Source of the DNA: Nitrosopumilus sp.
Lineage (GTDB): Archaea > Thermoproteota > Nitrososphaeria > Nitrososphaerales > Nitrosopumilaceae
DNA: 64,000 bases
Direction of reading: 5' to 3'
Assembly: GCA_965223425.1 (NCBI GenBank)
Contig: OZ245003.1
Span: 1,984,001 to 2,048,000, forward strand
Of this stretch, positions 51,712-64,000 are shown piece after piece; the stretch's first letter is position 1, and each line of letters opens with the position of its first letter. Made by a program: the position numbers and the translations under genes. The notes under the pieces were generated by a model that was given only the letters and a program-made list of their open reading frames with translations, did not search any database and was not told the origin of the DNA.

Positions 51712-53157
51712 GTGCCAATAGAAGATATTCATGAGTTCGCTGCAGCGCTTGAAAAGAATGGGGAGCTGAAGAGAGTCAAAACTGAAGTTGACTCTGATTT
51801 GGAGATTGCAGAAATTTTGAGAAGAGAGATGTATTCTAATGGTTCTGCAATTCTTTTTGAAAATGTAAAAGGTTATGGCATGCCAGTTTTAGGAAACGCG
51901 TTTGGCTCAATGAAGAGATTAGAGATAGGACTGGAAATGACAGACTTTACTGAGATTGGCCAGCGCATTGCAGACATGACAAAGATGATGGATGTTCCAT
52001 CAGGCTTTCTAAGCAAAATAAGAAAGCTTCCAGAACTATCAAAGATGGCAGCATCATTTCCTAAAGCAGAAACAAGTGGTCCTGTAACGGAAATAGCATC
52101 AAGTGATGCATCTTTTGATGACCTGCCAATTTTAAAATCATGGCCAAGTGATGCAGGACGGTTTATCACTCTAGGATTAGTTGCCACAAAACATCCAGAA
52201 ACAAAAGTAAGAAATCTTGGAGTATATAGAATGCAGGTAATTGACAAAACTCATGCATTGATGCACTGGCAAAAACACAAGAGGGGAGCTAATCACGGGG
52301 ACATTTCAAAAGACAGGGGAGAAAAAATTCCAACTGCAGTAATTATTGGAGGAGAGCCTGCAACAATATTTTCATCAATTGCGCCAGTACCAGAGGGATT
52401 AGACAAGTACCTGTTTGCAGGAATTACAAGAAAAGAAGGAATTAAGACTGTAAAATGTAAGACAATTGATTTGGATGTTCCGGCAAACGCAGAGATTGTT
52501 TTAGAAGGATACGTTGATCCTGCAGACATTAGAGACGAGGGACCGTTTGGAGATCATACAGGCTACTATACCCCAGTTGAGCCGTACCCAACATTTACGC
52601 TGACAGGAGTTATGAGACGAAAAGATCCAATTTATGTTACGACAGTCGTAGGAAAACCAATTCTTGAGGATGCATATATTGGAAAAGTGATTGAGCGATC
52701 ATTTTTACCACTTGTTCGAATGTTTCATCCCGAAGTAGTCGATTTTAGCATGCCGGCAGCAGGATGGTTCCAGGGATTTGCCATCGTATCAATCAAGAAG
52801 AGATACCCAGGCCAGGCAAAGAAAGTGATGATGGGGCTATGGGGAATGGGACAGCTCTCGCTAACGAAGATGTTAGTGGTGGTAGATGAGGACATCAACG
52901 TTCACGAAATAAATGATGTCATCTGGGCAATAACTACAAGGGCAGATGCGGCAAGGGACACGACAATCATTAACAACACGCCTACTGACACCCTGGATCC
53001 CGCATCTCCACTTGTTAACTTGGGTTCCAAGTTGGGAATTGATGCGACGCAGAAAACAAAAGAAGAGGGGTATGACAGAGAGATCCAGCAACAAGTGCAA
53101 GTTGACGATAAAACAAAGGGGTTAGTGGATTCTAAATGGTCTGACTATGGGCTATGA
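51712..53157 (+). CDS. ubiD: UbiD-family decarboxylase (menaquinone biosynthesis)
   Basis: RNLGVYRMQ, VPANAEIVLEG, EGPFGDHTGYY and VVVDED; convergent with mqnC. Confidence 0.9.
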   Translation: MPIEDIHEFAAALEKNGELKRVKTEVDSDLEIAEILRREMYSNGSAILFENVKGYGMPVLGNAFGSMKRLEIGLEMTDFTEIGQRIADMTKMMDVPSGFLSKIRKLPELSKMAASFPKAETSGPVTEIASSDASFDDLPILKSWPSDAGRFITLGLVATKHPETKVRNLGVYRMQVIDKTHALMHWQKHKRGANHGDISKDRGEKIPTAVIIGGEPATIFSSIAPVPEGLDKYLFAGITRKEGIKTVKCKTIDLDVPANAEIVLEGYVDPADIRDEGPFGDHTGYYTPVEPYPTFTLTGVMRRKDPIYVTTVVGKPILEDAYIGKVIERSFLPLVRMFHPEVVDFSMPAAGWFQGFAIVSIKKRYPGQAKKVMMGLWGMGQLSLTKMLVVVDEDINVHEINDVIWAITTRADAARDTTIINNTPTDTLDPASPLVNLGSKLGIDATQKTKEEGYDREIQQQVQVDDKTKGLVDSKWSDYGL

Positions 53158-54270
53158 TACTCTAACAGGATTGTAGAAGTTGTCTCGCTCTTCTACCTGA
53201 CAGCCAATTTGACGGATGGCATCTATGATTTTTTTATCAGTTAGTTCAGTTGAGCGCGCGCCAGTACACGAAACAACCTCTTCTCCAATGAGGGTTCCGC
53301 CAAAGTCATCAGCGCCATATTGTAAAGCAAGCTGAGCCATGCCAACGCCATTTGTCAACCAAGAAGACTGGATGTGCGGTATCAAGCCATCAAAGACTAG
53401 TCTGGATATTGCAATCATCTTCAAGAGTTGAACGCCGCCAGTCCCGTATTCAACCAAGCCTTCTTCATGCATCAGGGTATTGTTTGGCTCAAAATTCCAC
53501 GGGATAAATGCCATGAAGCCTTTTGTTTTTTCTTGTAGTTTTACAATTTTGAAAAAGTGATCAACAATATCTTGCTTGTTTTCAACATGGCCATACATCA
53601 TGGTTGCAGATGCTGAAAGTCCAAGCAAATGAGCCTCATCCATTATCCTAATCCAGTCATCACTGGATATTTTCTTTGGGCTAATAACATCTTTAACTGA
53701 ATCAACTAAGATTTCAGCGCCGGCACCAGGAATTGACTGCAACCCGGCGTCTTTTAGCCTAGACAAGATTTCTTTTGTTGAGGACTTTTCAACTTTTGCA
53801 ATCATGTCAAGCTCGGACGCAGATAGCCCGTGAACGCCAACTTTTGGGAATTTTTCCCGAATCATCCTAAATGCATCTTCATAGTATTCTATACTCAAGT
53901 TTGGATTATGGCCGCCTTGAATCAAAACTTGACGGATCTTAAACATGTCCCATGAGGCCTTTACTCTAGATTCGATTTGATCAAGAGTCAGCGTGTAAGA
54001 ATCATCAGCGCCAGGTGATCTATAAAACGCACAAAACTTACAATCAGTAATGCAGACATTGGTATAATTCAAGATAATATTATTTACAAAAGATGCTTTT
54101 TTGCCAAATCGTTTTCGTGTCAGGTGTCCAGAAACAAGCCCCATAAGATGAACATCATCAGACTCTAACAGTCTCAAGCAGTCCTCAGGTTCGGGCCTTT
54201 GGCCGTTAAGAGAATTCTCCAAAACGTCTTTGATATCGCTTTTTTGTATCTGTTCAGTAGTTTGGCTCAA
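53152..54270 (-). CDS. mqnC: Cyclic dehypoxanthinyl futalosine synthase
   Basis: YTNVCITDCKFCAFYR, QGGHNP, PGAGAEIL, AFIPW, QSSW and GADDFGGT. Confidence 0.85.
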   Translation of the reverse strand: MSQTTEQIQKSDIKDVLENSLNGQRPEPEDCLRLLESDDVHLMGLVSGHLTRKRFGKKASFVNNIILNYTNVCITDCKFCAFYRSPGADDSYTLTLDQIESRVKASWDMFKIRQVLIQGGHNPNLSIEYYEDAFRMIREKFPKVGVHGLSASELDMIAKVEKSSTKEILSRLKDAGLQSIPGAGAEILVDSVKDVISPKKISSDDWIRIMDEAHLLGLSASATMMYGHVENKQDIVDHFFKIVKLQEKTKGFMAFIPWNFEPNNTLMHEEGLVEYGTGGVQLLKMIAISRLVFDGLIPHIQSSWLTNGVGMAQLALQYGADDFGGTLIGEEVVSCTGARSTELTDKKIIDAIRQIGCQVEERDNFYNPVRVS

Positions 54271-54544
54271 CTGTTCTTCATCTTTTTTAATTTCTATTTA
54301 ACCCTTGATAGAAAAAATGAGACCCTATTGTAACCACATGTGGCCAGTAGAAAAAGGCATTCAGATAGTAGACTTTATGCATAATTGAATCATAAAAATT
54401 TTTCCGAAAGATTTAGATCCATTTTGATCGCCGCAACAGGTAATGGAATCTTCAGAACAGACTATACGCAGGCTGCAAAGGGAGCTCAAACAAAAGGACA
54501 CAGCAATCAGGCAAAAGGACACAGCAATCAGGCAAAAGGACACA

Positions 54545-55686
54545 TAGTAAGTACATAAAAAACCTGAACCATTTTGACAATTATTTTTGGCCAAAAGATC
54601 CAAGACAGGCCATACCGCACACACTGCATGTACAAACAAAAAAAGAGACAGGTTGCAAGGGGGGCAAAATTTCTGCCAAACACCAGCGTTGCAGACCTCA
54701 AAAGGGCATACAAAAAAGAGACCGATCCCAGAAGGCGCGACAGGCTGCTTGCGTACATGCAGCGCAAGGACGGCGTGCCGCTAGACAGGATTGGAAGGAT
54801 GCTGGGAAGGCCCAAGTCCACCATATCTGCATGGCTCAACCGCGCACAGGACGAGGGAATACGCGCAAGGTTCGAGCGCAGCGGCAGGGGACGAAAGCAC
54901 CTGATAGGCGGGCCGCAGGCAAGACAGCTTGCAGCAGACCTGGATGCGGGGCCAGAATCATGCGGCTTTGAGAGCAGCCTGTGGGATTCCAACCTGGTAA
55001 GGCTGCACATCAAGAGAAAGTTCGGCGTGCAGTACAGCAAGGCAGGCGCGCTGCAGCTGGTCAGGGAGATGGGCTTTTCGTGGAGCAAGGCGCGTCCAAA
55101 AAACCCAAGATCAGCCTCAAAAAGAAAGCAAAAAGAGTTTCAGGAGCGGGCAAAAAAACTCGTTGCAGAAAAGTCGGCGCAGGGATACGCCGTACTGGCC
55201 GGCGATGCATCCTCGATTCAAAAGGCATCAAACAGGCCCGGCTACGGGTGGAGAAGGCGCGGCAAGCGCGCCACATCCCCCTCTGTTTTGTCACGCGAAA
55301 GAAGATACATCTTTGGAGCCTTGGCGGCAAACGCATTTTACTTTATGTTTTATGAAAAGTCAAACAGCGACAGCTTTTGCAACTTTTTGGAACGGGTTCA
55401 CAAAAGATTCGGCAAGGTGCTGCTGTTTGTAGACAATGCGTCATATCACAAATCCAAAAAGGTAAAGGAGTTTCTGGAAAGATACAACGGCGAGATAGTT
55501 CTGGAGTACCTGCTGCCGTACACGCCGGAGCTTAATCCCATTGAGATGCAGTGGAGGGTGATAAAACGGGTACTGTCTGCAAAAGTGTTTGGCACGCTAG
55601 ATGAGATGGAGCAGTCAGTACGCAAGCTGTTTGCCAGAAAGGAGATCCTGCCTGTGAAAATGTTCAATTATTTAATGTGCTAACTA
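54545..55686 (+). mobile_element. IS630-family element nested in ISL2-like copy 1
   Basis: Imperfect IRs of about 34 bp, TAGTAAGTACATAAAAAACCTGAAC vs TAGTTAGCACATTAAATAATTGAAC; flanked by CA/CA. Confidence 0.9.
54628..55683 (+). CDS. IS630-family transposase
   Basis: HTHs, GFSWSKARP, GDASS, VDNASYH and LPYTPELNPIEMQW; uninterrupted ORF. Confidence 0.92.
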   Translation: MYKQKKRQVARGAKFLPNTSVADLKRAYKKETDPRRRDRLLAYMQRKDGVPLDRIGRMLGRPKSTISAWLNRAQDEGIRARFERSGRGRKHLIGGPQARQLAADLDAGPESCGFESSLWDSNLVRLHIKRKFGVQYSKAGALQLVREMGFSWSKARPKNPRSASKRKQKEFQERAKKLVAEKSAQGYAVLAGDASSIQKASNRPGYGWRRRGKRATSPSVLSRERRYIFGALAANAFYFMFYEKSNSDSFCNFLERVHKRFGKVLLFVDNASYHKSKKVKEFLERYNGEIVLEYLLPYTPELNPIEMQWRVIKRVLSAKVFGTLDEMEQSVRKLFARKEILPVKMFNYLMC

Positions 55687-58053
55687 CAGCAATCAAGCAG
55701 AACAACAGAGCAATCAAGCAGAACAACAGAGCAATCAAGCAGAACAACAGAGCAATCAAGCAAAAGGACGCAGCAATCAGCAGGCGCGAGAAGACGATTG
55801 GCCTGCTGCACGAGCAGCAGCTGCTGCGCGAGGACAGCCTGTGGGCCGTTACAGATGCAGGCCGCCCTGATACGGACACGTCGCTGCTGCACATCAGGGA
55901 GGTGATCCACGGCATACTGCACAACAGCGCAAAGCTTGCGGGAATTACCTCGTATGACCTTGACCAGTTTGACTACATCTACAATGACTTTGTGGTAGAG
56001 TCAAAGAGGCACAACAAAGACGCGCCGCTCTTTTCAGAGGACGAAACACCGGATCCCGGAAACCGCTGCCTGCTTGACCGCAGGTCCGTCCTGCTGCTTG
56101 CGCTGTTCCGCAAGCGCTCAAACGTGACGCAGGATGCCCTGGGAGTGCTGTTTGATGTGGATCAGTCCACCGTGTGCAGGTACCTCAAGTTCGCAGATTC
56201 CGTGCTGGCAGGGATCCTGCCTACTGCAGACAGGATGACCCGTCTGGTAAAAAAGGCCGAGACATCAGAGCAGCTAGAGCAGCTAATGCCGGACAGAACC
56301 ATCATAATTGACGGCACCGAGGTGGTGCCAAGGCAGCGTCCGCAGGACAAGGATAAAAGAAAAAACACGTACTCTGACAAAAAGAAGCGCTTTACGATTA
56401 ACACCACCATAACAACAAACAGGGCAGGCCTGATACTTGCAGCAGGCAGGTCCTTTGAGGGCGGGACGCACGACCTTACCATGATAAGAGAGGATCCGAC
56501 AGACTGGCAGGTGGTCTAAATCCATGTACAAAAAAGACACTCCGGAAAAGGACAGGATACGGGTGCTTGTAGACAAGGGGTACCGGGGATGCCAATCACT
56601 ACACGGGAATGGCACTTGAGATGCCGGAAAAAAAGAGGCCGCGGACGGAGCTGACGCAGCAGCAAAAGGACTCCAACAAAAGGATCAGCGCCAAGAGGGT
56701 AAAGGTGGAGCACGCCATCGGAAGAATAAAGCAGTGGGCGAGGATGACAGACCCGTACGACGGCACGGTAGAGGGGTTTCGCGAGGAGCTGGCTGTGTGT
56801 ACCGGCCTTGCGAACTTTCAACTGCTGTGGGATGCAAAGAAAAAGCGGCCGTCACTTGGTTATTGACGGCACAGCACAGGGTGCATGAGGCACTGCAAGA
56901 GTGCGCACGGATTTCTAATTTCTGCGAATTTACAATGATCTTTTGCATCAAAATTAAATAATTTCCTGGACTGGCTTTGTGTGTCTTGGTAATGTATGCT
57001 GCAGAAAAAATTTGACGGGTCAATTATGCATAAAGTCTATTGTTTGTGGGTTTAATCGCTGCAATGATTTTGCCATTTAGTAGTATGGATTTTGTACAAG
57101 CTGCAAATTCAAAAGATTCTACATCTGACGATGAATTGTTAGATAGAGAGTTTTCTAATTGGGAAAGTCAATACAAAAATGCAGAAGATTTTGATGCAAA
57201 AACTAAATCAATCAAAGCATATACATCTATGGTCGATCGTGCTAATGGATGGAACAAAGTTATGATAAAAGAGCAAATCGTTCTTAATAACTTTGACACT
57301 AGAATGAATGAAGTGGGTGCATCGATGCAGACAATGTTAGTAGACATTGAACAACAAAAACGAAATGGCACATACCAGCCAACAGATGCCGAAAGGAGAT
57401 ATCATGATTGGGCTGCTACAAAGTATCCAAATCCAATAGCATCAGATGTCAATCCTGAAGTTGTTACAAAAATTGTAGACTCGCACAACAACATAGCTAA
57501 TCATGGAAATGTACCAATTGAGTTACATTTACAAGATGACTCTTTTTGGACTGAAACAAACCATAATGCAGCTTGCAATTACATGAGTTGTGAAGAATCC
57601 CAAAACACAGATGTTGTAAATAAAGCCATTAACTATGTTATACCAGAAGCCTTTGCAGCTAATCCATATCATACAATGAATGGACACATCTATGCATGGG
57701 CTTGTGAGGGAAGTACTGGTGGTTGCGCATGGACTGTTTCAGACTCTGGTTATGGAGCACTAAATGATTCAGTATCAAATACTAGTACGACTCATGGAAT
57801 AGGTAAAAATGCATACATATATGGTTCTGACTGTTCTTCTTCATCAAGTTATACGCATGATGTTGAGGGAGTGTTAGAGATTGGCATTAATTCTTGGAGT
57901 GATTCTGATACATGGACAGGTACCTGTGCAGCATTTAGCTCAACACATCAAGTAGCTAATAGCCCAAGTGCAACTTGGTTGTTCACATACACCGTAGATT
58001 CAAATGCCCAATAGGCATTAATCTTTTTTTATTACTAAATTTGGTGAATTGAC

Positions 58054-58647
58054 ATGAACAAATGGTTCTTTATCGTTTTTCCAATAGTGATTGGTTTTTT
58101 ACTAATTGTCCTAAATTTTAATTCGATGTATAATTATGTCACATATGTTGTGCCAATGCAAAATGCAGTTTTTTTAGATAAAGGAATTGGCCATTATGAT
58201 TATTTGTTAAATGGTGGAAATATAACATCAATAGAAAAAGCAGTGTTGCAACCAGACAACTCAATTAATGTTATTTTTGGTCAAAATGACTACAAATGGT
58301 CCACAGGGTATGAGCCAATTCCTAAATTTAATTATGGGATGAATTTACAGAGAAATGACACTTTGATCCTACTTTGTACAAATATTGGCAAAGATGGTTA
58401 TGCAGATCAGCACCCAGATTTGTCAGAGCCGTATTTTCCAGGTCTTGGAATTTTCAAATATTTAGGACCAATAGTAGTTGAAAATAAAACAGTTTTATTA
58501 TTTTGGCATGAATCAGCTTCTCTCCAAGCAGACATGCCATGTAACTATCCTGAAGTAATTCATAATTCCATTAATTTATGGGAGTTGCAAGAACATGGAG
58601 AACCTGATAATAATTTAGAGAAAATGTTTGGTTCAGATTATCAATAA
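58054..58647 (+). CDS. Membrane-anchored hypothetical protein
   Basis: N-terminal TM; CNYPEVI motif; follows the secreted protein gene. Confidence 0.65.
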   Translation: MNKWFFIVFPIVIGFLLIVLNFNSMYNYVTYVVPMQNAVFLDKGIGHYDYLLNGGNITSIEKAVLQPDNSINVIFGQNDYKWSTGYEPIPKFNYGMNLQRNDTLILLCTNIGKDGYADQHPDLSEPYFPGLGIFKYLGPIVVENKTVLLFWHESASLQADMPCNYPEVIHNSINLWELQEHGEPDNNLEKMFGSDYQ

Positions 58648-58719
58648 ATTTCAAATCTTATCAAGAAAAAACAAAACAATTATTATTAAAAGTTCTAGAA
58701 AGTTCTGGCGGTTCTGGTA

Positions 58720-59140
58720 ACCATATGTGAATACAGAGAAAAGGAAATCAGACAGCATAAGAGATGAACCTAATTCCAGGATTCGCAGTCTGTCACCTCC
58801 AAAGAAACAGATTAGGGGCAAATTAAGCAACAGCATGTATGTGGGCATTGACCTGCACAAGAAACCTCTTCAAGTAGCAATAATGGACAATGACGGAAAG
58901 GTATTACAAAACAGCAATTGACAACACTCACCAGACAATCAAGAAACATTTTGCAAGCATACCGCCTTATGCCAGCATAGCCATGAATCCTCATCTGTCT
59001 GGTTGATACATGTCGATTTCTGACAGATACGCTTGGATACAAAAACCCTGTCAAACCCATACCTGACAAAGGCAATAGCTGCATCCAAGAAGAAGACAGA
59101 CAAGGTTGATGCCAAGATCCTTACAGCTCTGCTGAGGATG
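58720..59140 (+). pseudogene. Truncated IS110/IS1111-type element
   Basis: Same left end (TA)ACCATATGTGAA as 62250; MYVGIDLHKK..QVA and SNP...KKTDKVDA fragments with frameshifts. Confidence 0.8.
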
Positions 59141-59370
59141 GATCCGTGGAGCGAGCTCCTGCCAGATCACAGTACTGTTGCCAAGTTCATGCAGAAGATT
59201 CCAACTGCATGGCTTTGACATGGATGCAATGCATATGAACCACTTGGCGAGCTAGCCAGACATGTATGGAAAAGTGATTTGGGAAAAGCTGTTGTTATTG
59301 GTAGCAGTTTAGCATTACTCGGTTTAGCAATAATGAAAGCTAGAAATTAATCTGAAATCGATCACCATGA

Positions 59371-60336
59371 CTAAGTGTCTGGGCTGAAATATTTCCCTGC
59401 ATTGTATTCTTCTGCACACATTTCAAAAAGACGCAGGTATGACTTTTCATTATATTGCGAGTTTACAGTATTTAGATAATCAGTAATTTCTCTGTTCCTC
59501 TCTATGATGTTATTGAACAAATCCTTATGTGGCAGCATGTCAGATTTTGTGCAGTTGCATTGCTGGCAGGCCAATGTACAGTTGTACGGATCAGTTGAAA
59601 AAACATAGTTGAATGGTATGACATGATCCACATGTGGTCGCTGAAATTTTTGCTCACAATAAAAACATCTAGAGTCTTGCTGTTGATTCATCCAAAGCTG
59701 TATCTCCGCTTTCAAAGAAATCCTACTCTTTAGTTCATTGTCTATCTTGTTTGCAATTTGAGGAGTCATACGATTTAATTTTTCAAGATATTTTGCAAGC
59801 GAGCTGTTTATTCCTTTTTTTAAAAGTATCTTATGCGTATGCAGAAATTCAATAACATCTTCATCTAATGCTATTATTTTTGAATCGGTTTTTTTATAAA
59901 ATCCTTTCATATCTGTAAGCAGATGTACTAAAACCTCTGGCTTGATACTCTTAGTAATTACCTTTGCTCGAAATTGCTCCATTTTATCTGATGATAGTTC
60001 ATCTATGGTGGGTGGTTTTTTTTGAGGATCATGAATGCTTTTTATCAATCTGGTTATGTTTGCATCCTGCGGATCCTGGGACTGTCTGAGACGAAAACTA
60101 TACTCCATATCCCAATAATATTTTGCAAATCGAACAGCAACAAAATTTAGATCCACAAAAACTTTCCCGTCTTTGCGTTCAAGCCATTGATTGCCTACCA
60201 ATTTTTGTGCAGTTCTAGAATCATACAGATCTCCAATATCCAAAATGGCCCGTAAGAATACGGGTTTATACGTGCTGGCCATTCTTCCTTCCTTACTGAA
60301 GAATCGATTGAACATTTGTAGATAGTCTTTGGACAT
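59371..60336 (-). CDS. HNH endonuclease (McrA-like, candidate modification-dependent restriction)
   Basis: N-terminal STYKPVFLRAIL; C-terminal CFYC...HVDHVIP...N...CQQCNCTK. Confidence 0.85.
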   Translation of the reverse strand: MSKDYLQMFNRFFSKEGRMASTYKPVFLRAILDIGDLYDSRTAQKLVGNQWLERKDGKVFVDLNFVAVRFAKYYWDMEYSFRLRQSQDPQDANITRLIKSIHDPQKKPPTIDELSSDKMEQFRAKVITKSIKPEVLVHLLTDMKGFYKKTDSKIIALDEDVIEFLHTHKILLKKGINSSLAKYLEKLNRMTPQIANKIDNELKSRISLKAEIQLWMNQQQDSRCFYCEQKFQRPHVDHVIPFNYVFSTDPYNCTLACQQCNCTKSDMLPHKDLFNNIIERNREITDYLNTVNSQYNEKSYLRLFEMCAEEYNAGKYFSPDT

Positions 60337-60554
60337 TATAATCAAACATGGATCGTACAATAATAATATGATCTCATTCGGGATTCAGATTGTTTCATGA
60401 TGCCAGATTAGAATTCTAAAATTATTCGCACCACGTCCCAACAAAAATTCTAAGCAGCAAAAGTTACTTGACAAACACATATTCAAACCCAAAATTTCCA
60501 AGACAAGTTCTCATCTATTGGACAAATCCAAAGGTAACACGATGAAAATTTGGA

Positions 60555-60609
60555 AATAACTTCAGAGAGAATAACTTCAGAGAGAATAACTTCAGAGAGA
60601 ATAACTTCA
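60555..60609. repeat. Short 15-bp tandem repeat (about 3.6 copies)
   Basis: AATAACTTCAGAGAG x3 plus a partial unit. Confidence 0.85.
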
Positions 60610-60788
60610 ATAATTCAATAAGACAAAAATAGTTCAATGTCTAACTTTTTTATTTTATAATATGATAGAATCTGATGATTTGAAAATATTTGATAATCAG
60701 GCCCCCTTGATAATAGACTTTATGCATAATTGAATCATAAAAAATTTTTCCGAAAGATTTAGATCCATTTTGATCGCCGCAACAGGTA

Positions 60789-62089
60789 ATGGAATCTTCA
60801 GAACAGACTATACGCAGGCTGCAAAGGGAGCTCAAACAAAAGGACACAGCAATCAAGCAAAAGGACACAGCAATCAAGCAAAAGGACACAGCAATCAAGC
60901 AAAAGGACACAGCAATCAAGCAGAACAACAGAGCAATCAAGCAGAACAACAGAGCAATCAAGCAGAACAACAGAGCAATCAAGCAAAAGGACGCAGCAAT
61001 CAGCAGGCGCGAGAAGACGATTGGCCTGCTGCGCGAGCAGCTGCTGCTGCGCGAGGACAGCCTGTGGGCCGTTACAGATGCAGGCCGCTCTGATACGGAC
61101 ACGTCGCTGCTGCACAGCAGGGAGGTGATCCACGGCATACTGCACAACAGCGCAAAGCTTGCGGGAATTACCTCGTATGACCTTGACCAGTTTGACTACA
61201 TCTGCAACGACTTTGTGGTAGAGTCAAAGAGGCACAACAAAGACGCGCCGCTCTTTTCAGAGGACGAAACACCGGATCCCGGAAACCGCTGCCTGCCTGG
61301 CCGCAGGTCCGTCCTGCTGCTTGCGCTGTTCCGCAGGCGCTCAAACGTGACGCAGGATGCCCTGGGTGTGCTGTTTGATGTTGACCAGTCCACCGTGTGC
61401 AGGTACCTCAAGTTTGCAGATTCCGTGCTGGCAAAGATTCTGCCTACTGCAGACAGGATGGCCCGTCTGGTAAAAAGGGCCGAGACATCAGGGCAGCTAG
61501 AGCAGCTAATGCCGGACAGAACCATCATAATTGACGGCACCGAGGCGGTGCCAAGGCAGCGTCCGCAGGACAAGGATAAAAGAAAAAACACGTACTCTGG
61601 CAAAAAGAAGCGCTTTACGATTAACACCACCATAACAACAAACAGGGCAGGCCTGATACTTGCAGCAGGCAGGTCCTTTGAGGGCGGGACGCACGACCTT
61701 ACCATGATAAGAGAGGATCCGATAGACTGGCAGGTGGTCTAAATCCATGTACAAAAAGGACACGCCCGAAAAGGACAGGATACGGGTACTTGCAGACAAG
61801 GGGTACCAGGGATGCCAATCACTACACGGGAATAGCACTTGAGATGCCGGAAAAAAAGAGGCCGCGGACGGAGCTGACGCAGCAGCAAAAGGACTCGAAC
61901 AAAAGGATCAGCGCCAAGAGGGTAAAGGCGGGGCACGCCATCGGAAGAATAAAGCAGTGGGCGAGGATGACAGACCCGTATGACGGCACGGTAGAGGAGT
62001 TTCACGAGGAGCTGGCTGTGTGTACCGGCCTTGCAAACTTTCAACTGCTGTGGGATGCAAAGAAAAAGCGGCCGTCACTTGGTTATTGA
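60789..62089 (+). pseudogene. DDE_Tnp_4-like transposase (copy 2) with N-terminal heptad repeats, two frameshifts
   Basis: IIDGTE, YSGKKK, THD | ADKGYQG | KRVKAGHAIG; the third catalytic Glu is Gly in this copy. Confidence 0.82.
60834..61001 (+). repeat. 21-bp coding tandem repeat (KQKDTAI x4, KQNNRAI x3, KQKDAAI)
   Basis: Direct reading; copy 1 has one fewer KDTAI unit. Confidence 0.9.
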
Positions 62090-62355
62090 CGGCACAGCAC
62101 AGGGTGCATGAGGCACTGCAAGAGTGCGCACGGATTTCTAATTTCTGCGAATTTACAATGATCTTTTGCATCAAAATTAAATAATTTCCTGGACTGGCTT
62201 TGTGTGTCTTGGTAGTGTATGCTGCAGAAAAAATTTGACGGGTCAATTAACCATATGTGAAGGCTCGGAGAAAAGGAATTTTAGATGACACTGGCATCAA
62301 GTCCTTTAAAAAGAAAAAAACAAAGAAACAGATTACCCATGGTTCTGACAAGATC

Positions 62356-63345
62356 ATGTATGTTGGACTAGACGTACACAAGGAGACGATTCAAGTTGCA
62401 GTACTGGATGGCGGCGGGACACTGCAGTCCAACATGAAGATAAAGAACAATCATGCGGAGATCAGGAAAACATTTGCCATGATCCCAAGGGACTCAAAAT
62501 ACGTGCTGGAATCATCATCTGTCTGGTACGGCCTATACCGGTTTCTCACAGATACGCTGGGATTAAATGTAATCGTATCCAATCCGTTTAGCACCAAGGT
62601 AATTGCAACGTCGCTCAAAAAAACAGACAAGGTGGACGCGCAGGCGCTGGCAAATCTATTGAGAGGGGGCTACATTGCACAGTGCCACGTGCCCGACAAT
62701 GACATAGTAGAGCTAAGACACCTTGCAAGACACAGAAACAAACTGGTCAAGACAAGAACAGTCATGAAGAATTCCATACATGGGATACTCTTGCAAAACG
62801 GAATCAAGACAAAATCCGGCGGATTCGGATCCGGCCACGTAAGGGAATTGAGAAAACTGAGGAACTATCGCATAGATTCGTTCCTTGATTCCATAGCGTT
62901 TCTAGACGGGCAGATCTACAAAATGGATGTAAAAACCCGCCGGATAGTCAAAAGGGATCAGAACATCAGTCTGCTGACCACCGTTCCTGGAATAGGGTAT
63001 TATTCTGCGCTTGCAATATATTCGGAGATTGGCAATATCGAAAGATTTTCAGACTCACACAAACTGTGTGCATACGCGGGCATTGTTCCGTCCGTGAGAA
63101 ACTCTGCTGAGACGGTACACCACGGCAGGATAACAAAGAGGGGAAGCCGTATGCTGCGATGGATAGCAGTGGAGGCAATCCAGACCCATACAAGACACGC
63201 GCCTGACAGCGACATTACAAGATTCTACAACCGTCTTGCAAAAAAGAGAGGAAGATCAAAGGCAAAGGTTGCAGCGGCATCAAAGCTGATACGTGTAATA
63301 TATTGGATGCTAAAGGAGAAAAAAGAGTATGTTGCCCAAAAATAA
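62356..63345 (+). CDS. IS110-family DEDD recombinase/transposase
   Basis: VGLDVHK, VLESS, KTDKVDA, VPGIG, GIVPSVRNSA (catalytic Ser region), ITKRG...LR. Confidence 0.95.
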   Translation: MYVGLDVHKETIQVAVLDGGGTLQSNMKIKNNHAEIRKTFAMIPRDSKYVLESSSVWYGLYRFLTDTLGLNVIVSNPFSTKVIATSLKKTDKVDAQALANLLRGGYIAQCHVPDNDIVELRHLARHRNKLVKTRTVMKNSIHGILLQNGIKTKSGGFGSGHVRELRKLRNYRIDSFLDSIAFLDGQIYKMDVKTRRIVKRDQNISLLTTVPGIGYYSALAIYSEIGNIERFSDSHKLCAYAGIVPSVRNSAETVHHGRITKRGSRMLRWIAVEAIQTHTRHAPDSDITRFYNRLAKKRGRSKAKVAAASKLIRVIYWMLKEKKEYVAQK

Positions 63346-63349
63346 TTTA

Positions 63350-63480
63350 TCACGGTTAGAGTCTGTCTGCGTTTTATGCGTTGAGGTTACACCTCGGGCA
63401 ATTAACTGCGGTTCAATCTAACAAATGGATGAAGAATGGCACTGGGAGTAAGATCCCGAATGGATACTTGTCCGCTCATC
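63350..63480 (+). ncRNA. Predicted bridge RNA / seekRNA of the IS110 element
   Basis: Two stem-internal loop-hairpin units whose loops match the target flanks and the element's own end (see findings). Confidence 0.75.
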
Positions 63481-63578
63481 TTTTGGAATTTGGATCAACC
63501 CTAACGTGAGCCATTCAACACTGTGACAGTTTGCAAGGAATGTTTATAAAGAATTCACATGGATATGCATAAAGTCTA

Positions 63579-63829
63579 GTACACTCTTTAAAAATATTCA
63601 GGAAATAATCGACAAGTTAAAAAAAGATATCATGGTAGGCAAACGAATTAAATTCAAAACTATTCCCAAATACTACAAAAAGAGACATGGGATTGACAAT
63701 GCGTTTCATGTATATTTGCCAAAAGGCATGAGACTAGTCTATTCTATTACTATTTACAATGGTGAAAAGACTGCATTTCTAATGGAATTAGCGGATCATC
63801 ATGCTTATGAGAAAAGATTCAATTATTGA
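63579..63829 (+). pseudogene. RelE/ParE-like toxin, probably 5'-disrupted by the ISL2-like insertion
   Basis: Frame is open from the IS boundary: TLFKNIQEIIDKLKKD.....IPKYY...LPKGMRLVYSI...DHHAYEKRFNY. Confidence 0.5.
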
Positions 63830-63888
63830 TACATAAATGTACATACATATAAATATCATTTGTCTGCATAAGCAGTTGGGAATCACGC

Positions 63889-64000
63889 ATGGCTAAATCA
63901 ATGACTGTTTTGGATTATATTTTGGAGAAAAGTAAAAAATACAATCCTACACTGAGAAGTTTTATTCAGGTCGAAAAATTAGTATTTGAGACTAAAGAAT
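63889..64000 (+). CDS. Hypothetical protein, partial (runs off window)
   Basis: MAKSMTVLDYILEKSKKYNPTLRSFIQVEKLVFETKE; TATA-like TATAAATA upstream. Confidence 0.5.
   Translation, partial: MAKSMTVLDYILEKSKKYNPTLRSFIQVEKLVFETKE

Follow-up and report, generated by a model that had tools for sequence, protein, structure and literature searches.

A predicted RNA-guided IS110-family element inserted in the terminal inverted repeat of an IS5-like element in a Nitrosopumilaceae archaeon

The window analyzed here is a 64,000-nucleotide stretch of Nitrosopumilus sp. DNA (assembly GCA_965223425.1, contig OZ245003.1, positions 1,984,001 to 2,048,000), and the subject is a 1,314-bp insertion sequence (IS) within it that splits the terminal inverted repeat (TIR) of another mobile element. 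This insertion is very probably an autonomous IS110-family IS of IS1111-type layout that is RNA-guided to the TIR of a co-resident IS5-like element in a Nitrosopumilaceae archaeon. The evidence consists of the anatomy of the insertion, its specificity for one site and one orientation, the independence of the insertions, the covariation of guide strands with both target and donor sequences and the covariation within the RNA structure. Expression of the RNA, formation of a circle, catalysis, promoter use, current activity and the disabling of the host element’s split end are inferred. An initial reading of the DNA (the original prediction) had named an archaeal IS1111-type recombinase with a TA core, inserted into the TIR of another IS.

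Insertion site, element ends and recombinase

The uninterrupted right end of the first host copy in the window can be read directly as GGGTCAATTATGCATAAAGTCTA (57017-57039). In the second host copy (body and inner right TIR at 60714-62249, forward strand, TIR TAGACTTTATGCATAATTGA), the same TIR is split by an insert that totals the 1,314-bp element plus one TA (62250-63565). Reading along the forward strand, the left target half GGGTCAAT and the TA core (TA at 62248-62249), together GGGTCAATTA, occupy 62240-62249. These are followed by the element body, ACCATATGTG...CACATGGA (62250-63563), a second copy of the TA core (63564-63565) and the outer 13 bp of the host TIR, TGCATAAAGTCTA, which have been displaced by the insertion (63566-63578). 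The junction CAATTA/ACCATATGTG (slashes mark junctions) is present in all three copies found by blastn, which are 99.3-100% identical. The original prediction described this split exactly, except that its start at 62241 is one base late, the true position being 62240; its end at 63578 is correct.

The element ends carry subterminal inverted repeats. The left repeat, CCATATGTGAA (62251-62261), pairs with TTCACATGG at the right end, where the repeat and end together read TTCACATGGA (63554-63563). The pairing is imperfect, with 9 matched nucleotides, a 2-nt gap and terminal extensions of 1 nt each. The left end TA/ACCATATGTG is kept in relatives. Non-coding sequence amounts to 106 nt on the 5' side (62250-62355) and 218 nt on the 3' side (63346-63563).

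Between these regions lies the recombinase gene (62356-63345, forward strand), which encodes 329 amino acids, including D6, E52, D91, D94 and S250 as placed by Pfam, NCBIfam and structure alignment. The open reading frame (ORF) matches the Pfam domains DEDD_Tnp_IS110 (PF01548, 2.8e-24, residues 3-147) and Transposase_20 (PF02371, 2.9e-22), and it scores 241.6 bits against NCBIfam NF033542, ‘IS110 family RNA-guided transposase’ (cut-off 140), over profile positions 1-342 of 343. Among solved structures, it can be aligned to ISCro4 (9t56, 1.2e-08) and IS621 (PDB 8wt6, 3e-08). Residues D6, E52, D91 and D94 align with the acidic motifs GIDVSK, mEATS and KTDAVDA of ISCro4, and GIVPSVRNS250A aligns with ISCro4 GLTPRRYESG, so that S250, in RNSA, stands opposite the ESG serine and is followed by A, not G. 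Pfam, NF033542 and the ISCro4 alignment thus agree that the DEDD and Ser motifs are kept, as originally proposed. By tblastn, the ORFs of all three copies are intact, full length and 99.1-100% identical. With the DEDD domain, the Transposase_20 serine, the NF033542 match and a site- and orientation-specific insertion that makes no true target duplication, the element is by its sequence a member of the IS110 family (sensu ISfinder).

The closest transposase relatives (45-59% amino acid identity) all come from Nitrosopumilaceae, Cenarchaeum or Thaumarchaeota metagenome-assembled genomes. Archaeoglobi follow at 38-40%, and beyond them come other archaea and some bacteria at about 30%. Among named elements, ISHvo10 of Haloferax volcanii pHV4 is the nearest (37.1% identity over 99% of the protein). 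The window belongs to the larger contig, C1 (2.51 Mb, 41.2% GC), of a two-contig genome. The assignment to an archaeon holds, since C1 carries a full archaeal small-subunit rRNA (1460.5 bits), an archaeal large-subunit rRNA and an archaeal AmoA (392 bits). The second contig, C2 (123 kb, 46.9% GC), has no host-element ends and no blast matches to the IS110 element or to the host IS, and it may belong to another organism than the archaeon.

The genome holds three full copies of the element and one 40-nt right-end remnant. The window copy (copy A) lies in a right TIR with flanks GGGTCAATTA/IS/TA TGCATAAAGTCTA. Copies B (C1:323144-324459, reverse strand) and C (C1:2067365-2068681, reverse strand) lie in left TIRs and, as reverse complements, have flanks GATTCAATTA/IS/..(T/C)GCATAAAGTCT. 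The remnant (C1:66866-66905), which adjoins an IS630-like end, reads ...CACATGGATA TGCATAAAGTCTA and then runs into unique DNA. Exact-string counts give three left junctions and three plus one right junctions. TIR targeting, as first proposed, is borne out at four loci: the three full copies and the remnant use the same TA of the TIR in the same orientation, with the right end toward the TIR tip, a regularity beyond what chance would give. The observation named beforehand as speaking against such targeting was a copy at an unrelated sequence, and when the flanks of every copy are listed there is none. The core dinucleotide TA stands on both sides in copies A and C, and the right-hand TA is also present in the remnant.

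Four public sequencing runs were compared as assembled contigs only, which drop rare forms. Contig depth over the element is about three times that of unique flank in two runs (2841.8 versus 989.5, and 9.32 versus 2.8), consistent with three copies. A contig joint from 62248 to 63547, with 10 other letters between, was considered as an excision and rejected, as it is a paralogous uninterrupted TIR variant. One contig has a loose end at 63581, TCAAGATT....

The host element is about 1.55 kb long and matches Pfam DDE_Tnp_4 and HTH_Tnp_4; against NCBIfam NF033581 (IS5_4) it scores 25.8 and 35.2 bits, below the cut-off of 140. The label ISL2-like, given to it in the original prediction, is therefore a tentative one. 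The family comprises about 25-30 full or partial copies, all on C1, and contig depth over the host part is about 30-90 times that of unique flank. Three TIRs in the window are unoccupied: the left TIR of host copy 1 (54369-54388, reverse strand, target TA at 54382-54383), its right TIR (57020-57039, forward strand, target TA at 57025-57026) and the left TIR of host copy 2 (60714-60733, reverse strand, target TA at 60727-60728). All three had been put forward as predicted targets, and each is present with guide-matching sequence; left TIRs are the ends used by copies B and C. A repeat search independently pairs the TIRs of both host copies (repeats I1, I3, I6 and I7). With as many as 3 mismatches allowed, a genome scan yields 86 free ends, 50 of host type and 36 belonging to a miniature inverted-repeat transposable element (MITE) of about 80 bp. 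The host-type free ends carry the exact sequence CAATTATGCATAAA in 31 cases and CAATTACGCATAAA in 2. The MITE ends, TCGATTAYGCATAAGGTCTA, resemble the host TIR and lie 62 bp apart (e.g. C1 27506/27568 and 107934/107996).

Predicted guide RNA and its covariation

A predicted bridge RNA or seekRNA of 144 nt begins at the recombinase stop codon (63343-63486, forward strand) and contains two similar internal loops. It matches the covariance model R1, described below, with 113.6 bits (E 9.6e-23), and the three RNA copies score 113.6-114.1 bits. The target loop is closed by the stem CUGC with GCGG, and consists of the 5' strand G-UUUUAUGCGU, a hairpin and the 3' strand GG-CAAUUAA-CU. Its right guide, UUUAUGCGU (63373-63381), can pair with the top strand A/TGCATAAA, one of the pairs being G:T. 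With the TIR variant A/CGCATAAA, found in the flank of copy C (TA CGCATAAAG), all pairs are Watson-Crick. Folding and comparison place the distal hairpin, UGAGGU UAC ACCUCG, at 63382-63396. The left guide CAAUUAA (63399-63405) has the sequence of the top strand across CAAT, the TA and the first element base, so that its pairing partner would be the bottom strand on the left side of the cut. The right guide thus lies 5' of the left guide, an order shared by all parsed relatives.

The donor loop (63427-63473, stem GGAU with GUCC, hairpin at 63443-63458) is delimited through the alignment of relatives. Its 5' strand AUGG (63436-63439) is complementary to the left-end CCAT, and its 3' strand AAUGGAUAC (63459-63467), which also contains AAUGGAUA-C, equals the right end ATGGA plus TA. 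The single-sequence minimum free energy structure reproduces the helices. The features of a bridge RNA or seekRNA are present in that the loops are complementary to both strands of target and donor, and the guides covary.

These elements suggest the following course of events. In the target loop, the 3' strand (CAAUUAA) would bind the bottom strand to the left of the cut and the 5' strand (UUUAUGCGU) the top strand to its right, so that both guides together would specify CAAT-TA-YGCATAAA inside the host TIR. The donor loop would recognize both ends of the element itself, the right one with its TA (AAUGGAUA) and the left one (AUGG with CCAT). On the model of IS621 and ISEc11/ISKpn4, excision would yield a circle with the junction ...CACATGGA-TA-ACCATATGTG..., which would then recombine at TA with a TIR in a single orientation and without target duplication. 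The split TIR would be expected to disable that end of the host element.

A TATA-box-like sequence, TTTATAAA (63543-63550, forward strand), is proposed as a promoter that lies 13 nt inside the right end and from which transcription would cross the circle junction and enter the recombinase gene. Of 23 distinct right-end tails, 22 have an A/T-rich box at positions -21 to -13 of the right end, and the remaining one has ATATAAA. The distance from an archaeal TATA box to the transcription start is about 26-27 nt. At this spacing the first nucleotide transcribed from a circle would lie a few bases into the left end, and the transcript would run on into the recombinase gene. A junction promoter is described for these IS families in bacteria (PMC11187229), and by analogy the right-end box may be its archaeal counterpart.

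The 3' regions of Nitrosopumilaceae relatives share the two-loop RNA architecture. For 17 sequences, RNAalifold gives 21 base pairs, of which 10 show compensatory changes, and the R1 model is built from this alignment and searched against the window and 80 loci. It returns 40 matches there, all within the clade, including seven loci absent from model building (L002, L003, L027, L028, L031, L032 and L040). Among the distant loci L037-L080 there is no match at E <= 0.01 save in the clade members L040 and L044, so R1 is clade-specific. In the model-based alignment of 31 distinct sequences, 93.3% of cells are paired, compared with 27-43% when partners are slid; this alignment is fitted to the model, which favours structure, and the MAFFT/RNAalifold result agrees with it. 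Compensatory changes occur in 13 of 25 pairs, and none of 500 shuffles reaches the observed values. R1 matches are found in 20 of 151 sampled Nitrosopumilaceae genomes, spread over 9 of 27 genera, and two genomes have at least 20 copies.

For the comparison of guides with insertion sites, the target loop is parsed in 36 loci (one failed), which form 23 guide families, and the conserved TA, TAA and element ends are stripped before scoring. The mean longest Watson-Crick run of the right guide is 4.74 with its own flank (23 families) and 2.96 with the flanks of other families (502 pairs); the corresponding values for the left guide are 3.69 (16 families) and 2.30 (238 pairs). The summed guide-flank score is reached by none of 10,000 permutations for the right guide and likewise for the left, figures that overstate independence because the guide families are related. 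The clearest instance is a genome with two near-identical variants whose guide strands differ at 2 and 5 positions and whose sites differ to match. Variant 1, with guides AAGATATT and GCGACCTAA, occupies the site GACC-TA-ATATCTT, and variant 2, with guides GTTCTGTT and GCAAGTTAA, occupies AAGT-TA-AAAGAACC.

The donor side covaries as well. In all 22 guide families the 5-mer of the donor guide is identical to the final 5 nt of the right end (ATGGA or ATAGA). Its core agrees with the one observed at the insertion in 21 of 22, a TG/TG pair among them, and the guide base after the core equals the first right-flank base in 12 of 22. The proposed TA core extends to 20 of the 22 families of the clade, with TG in the remaining 2. 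In loci L004, L015 and L033, the distal hairpins of the target and donor loops are identical within one element (for example, UGAGGGAGAUCCUCG twice); in the window element they differ.

A second IS1111-type family resides in the same genome, where R1 has 12 matches, 3 from the window family and 6 identical ones from the second family. The transposase of the latter is 50% identical in amino acids to the window recombinase, and its guides, ATGAACTCGT and CCTTGTAA, accompany the flanks ..(T)GTA/IS/TA(C/T)GAGTTCAC, which place the copies at the very tip of a different inverted-repeat mini-element (a MITE of about 75 bp). The occurrence of different guides with a different target in one cell argues for RNA guidance. 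As judged from these sites, the termini of other mobile elements are habitual targets in this genome. The second family is found at C1:1500641-1503198 and five other loci; one mini-element unit is occupied at both ends by copies that face each other, and several copies are truncated or frameshifted. A degenerate third IS110-family fragment lies in the window at 58720-59220. Its left end is TA/ACCATATGTGAATACAGAG, its N-terminal 118 amino acids are 39% identical and interrupted by stops, and its flank GGCGGTTCTGGTA is unlike the host TIR; a search of the window with R1 gives no bridge-RNA match for it.

Contrary evidence and alternative explanations

Besides the relatedness of the guide families, several results weigh against an active RNA-guided element. 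On the side of the RNA, the right guide has its G:T pair against the common form of the TIR. Single-sequence folding is no better than that of shuffled sequences, either for the 220-nt region (z -0.55; 58/200) or for the 125-nt core (z -1.34; 20/200), and an Rfam scan of 52000-64000 at E <= 1 returns no matches. Matches between guide and flank are poor in a number of relatives, namely L002, L003, L006 and L030 (longest pairing run 2) and L004 and L034 (longest run 3) for the left guide, and L033 and L044 (longest run 2) and L001, L012, L024, L034 and L036 (longest run 3) for the right guide. On the side of the insertions, only 3 of about 53 host-type ends are occupied, and none of the 36 MITE ends is occupied by the IS110 element, though their CGCATAA fits the right guide. 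The circle junction appears in no contig of the four runs, in which rare forms are dropped, and neither does an empty site at the window locus. Copy B is without the right-hand TA core (CACATGGA/TGCATAAAG). Contigs from three sequencing runs repeat this 2-nt omission, with a depth near one third of that of the element, and it is therefore no assembly slip; normal excision of copy B is probably impossible.

The idea that the insertion immobilises its host meets a further difficulty. An intact ORF of about 430 amino acids is present in 2 of 15 full-length host copies examined and in none of the three occupied copies (in host copy 2 of the window it is broken into 60789-61742 and 61790-62089). 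With their ORFs already broken, immobilisation adds little for the occupied copies unless they are mobilised in trans.

The low occupancy means that transposition is rare or that the element has perhaps become inactive. The strongest of the alternatives, although an unlikely one, is that the element is a relic that died recently. Its origin would be RNA-guided, but it would have lost its mobility in this genome, so that no ‘hyperparasitism’ would be going on. This would account for three full copies and one remnant among 50 free host-type ends, for the TA lost from copy B and for the finding that contigs of several runs repeat the three known junction flanks and hold no further junctions that could be assigned. 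It fits less well with three recombinase ORFs that are intact and nearly identical, with the uniformly high R1 scores of all RNA copies and with a divergence between copies of less than 0.7%.

It is very improbable that there was no targeted insertion at all, and that one ancestral insertion instead spread with the IS5-like host or by homologous recombination or gene conversion. The roughly 25-30 host copies would offer ample homology for such spread, and copies B and C are both in left TIRs. However, copy A is in a right TIR, and its inner flank differs from theirs (GGGTCAATTA versus GATTCAATTA). Pairwise, the IS110 copies have 4-9 mismatches per 1,314 nt (99.3-99.5% identity, approximate for copy B, whose slice is 2 nt short), whereas the three host copies that carry them have 38-45 mismatches and 29-46 gap positions in about 1,530 nt (94.5-95.7% identity), and the 400 nt of host sequence next to copies B and C are only 87.7% identical. 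The IS110 copies are closer to each other than their hosts are, which makes passive spread with the host, or by conversion, unlikely; on this comparison the insertions into the host copies are independent events. Spread of this kind would also leave the guide-target covariation in relatives and the second family unexplained.

A marginally smaller chance still is left for a site chosen by the protein without the RNA, in the manner of a classical site-specific recombinase, the 3' RNA-like structure having another role such as mRNA stability or termination: the target is partly palindromic (TTATGCATAA), as is typical of protein-recognized sites, but it is the loop strands and not the helices that vary among relatives and track their own flanks, the near-identical elements of one genome sit in different sites according to their guides, and the family is RNA-guided by experiment in bacteria (PMC11187229, PMC11208160, PMC11208158).

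Some further observations concern the host copies. At C1:31730, a host right TIR reads TCAATTAACCATAAAGTCTA, with ACC (the first bases of the IS110 left end) to the right of the TA in place of TGC. These bases may be a scar left by excision or the product of two chance substitutions, the copy being an old one with 85% identity. An IS630-family element (window 54546-55685; NF033545, 199 bits) is nested inside host copy 1, flanked by TA on both sides (..CACA TA GTAAGTACAT...ATGTGCTAAC TA CAGC..) within the 21-nt tandem-repeat array of the host, and the IS630-like end beside the IS110 remnant at C1:66866 is of the same type. The 21-nt repeats, AAGGACACAGCAATCAAGCAA and GAACAACAGAGCAATCAAGCA, lie in the 5' part of the host transposase ORF (60846-60990 and 55686-55779) and vary in number between host copies. 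A 15-nt tandem repeat, AATAACTTCAGAGAG, is present in 3-4 copies at 60555-60609, about 100 bp upstream of host copy 2.

Relation to known elements and significance

IS4321 and IS5075 are said to insert site-specifically into the TIR of another transposon, and to have subterminal inverted repeats and a long non-coding region downstream. They are reportedly bacterial and plasmid-borne, with a 38-bp Tn3-family repeat as their target. The window element is likened to them by target choice and layout, and differs in its archaeal host and IS5-like target. It is, on well-supported grounds, an archaeal member of the known IS1111-type bridge RNA or seekRNA elements, analogous to IS4321/IS5075.

The IS1111-type assignment stands in part. 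The layout agrees, with a longer 3' non-coding region, subterminal repeats and the order of the guides, while the canonical geometry of the subterminal repeats is not found; two of four IS1111 features are present (downstream non-coding region and guide order), and canonical subterminal repeats are not among them. As described, IS1111 elements have subterminal repeats of about 11-13 bp and terminal extensions of 7 bp on the left and 3 bp on the right (PMC11187229), compared with 9 matched nucleotides, a 2-nt gap and 1-nt extensions in the window element. Their seekRNAs present the complement of the top strand first, 5' of the complement of the bottom strand (Siddiquee et al. 2024, PMC11187229).

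In the account given of the IS1111 seekRNA elements ISEc11, ISKpn4/ISPst6 and ISPa11 (PMC11187229), several features recur that are seen here: a non-coding region downstream of the transposase, the same guide order, two matches meeting at the cut without a true target duplication, and natural reprogramming between close relatives. Their targets are also repeated sequences, in their case REP (repetitive extragenic palindromic) sequences and attC sites. Unlike them, the window element has the C-terminal motif G-x-x-P-x-x-x-x-S-A, not S/T-G, resides in an archaeal host and is known here from sequence alone.

The comparison with IS621, as reported, is similar in kind (PMC11208160, PMC11208158). 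Both have a recombinase with a DEDD and Ser composite site, a two-loop RNA logic and a core dinucleotide on both sides. The core is TA here and CT in IS621, and the RNA lies at the right end here and at the left end there. IS621 has the strand assignment predicted here, bottom strand for the left guides and top strand for the right guides (PMC11208158). Within each loop, its two guides come in the opposite order to those of the window element, and protein similarity amounts to 37-38 bits in the C-terminal half only. ISHvo10 and the haloarchaeal IS110-family elements are, like the window element, archaeal. Siddiquee et al. (PMC11187229) place ISHvo10 as a diverged relative on the IS1111 side and report long non-coding regions on both sides of it, unlike the window element.

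RNA-guided recombination by IS110 and IS1111 elements is already established, with experiments in bacteria (PMC11187229, PMC11208160, PMC11208158), as is TIR targeting by IS4321/IS5075. One preprint counts 662 archaeal IS110 recombinase homologues (bioRxiv 10.1101/2024.06.21.599552). A survey from 2019 of the mobile elements of Thaumarchaeota names 13 IS families, and the word IS110 does not occur in it (PMC6563490). Among the matches listed by a literature search on IS110-family transposases in Nitrosopumilus-type archaea and sponges, none contains the term ‘IS110 family’, and a search joining IS110, terminal inverted repeats, insertion sequences and Thaumarchaeota gives a sole match, which by its title concerns Mycobacteriaceae.

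The present analysis adds a concrete and internally controlled archaeal case of a mechanism known from bacteria, a thaumarchaeal clade with a defined bridge RNA in which natural reprogramming is visible within single genomes, and two co-resident families that are each aimed at the terminus of another mobile element. A wider proposal is made tentatively and is somewhat less likely to hold than to fail. Under it, sponge-associated and marine ammonia-oxidising archaea would carry their own compact clade of bridge recombinases, with a TA core, a symmetric two-loop RNA of about 144 nt and a TATA-box promoter across the circle junction. This clade would have been repeatedly reprogrammed onto the termini of co-resident transposons, its members living as obligate ‘transposons of transposons’ that gain safe landing sites and curb their hosts by splitting TIRs. 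In practical terms, the element would offer genome-engineering screens a mesophilic archaeal pair of bridge recombinase and RNA with a TA core. For the biology of these archaea, it may serve as a model of the mutual policing of transposons in symbiont genomes that are dense with IS elements.

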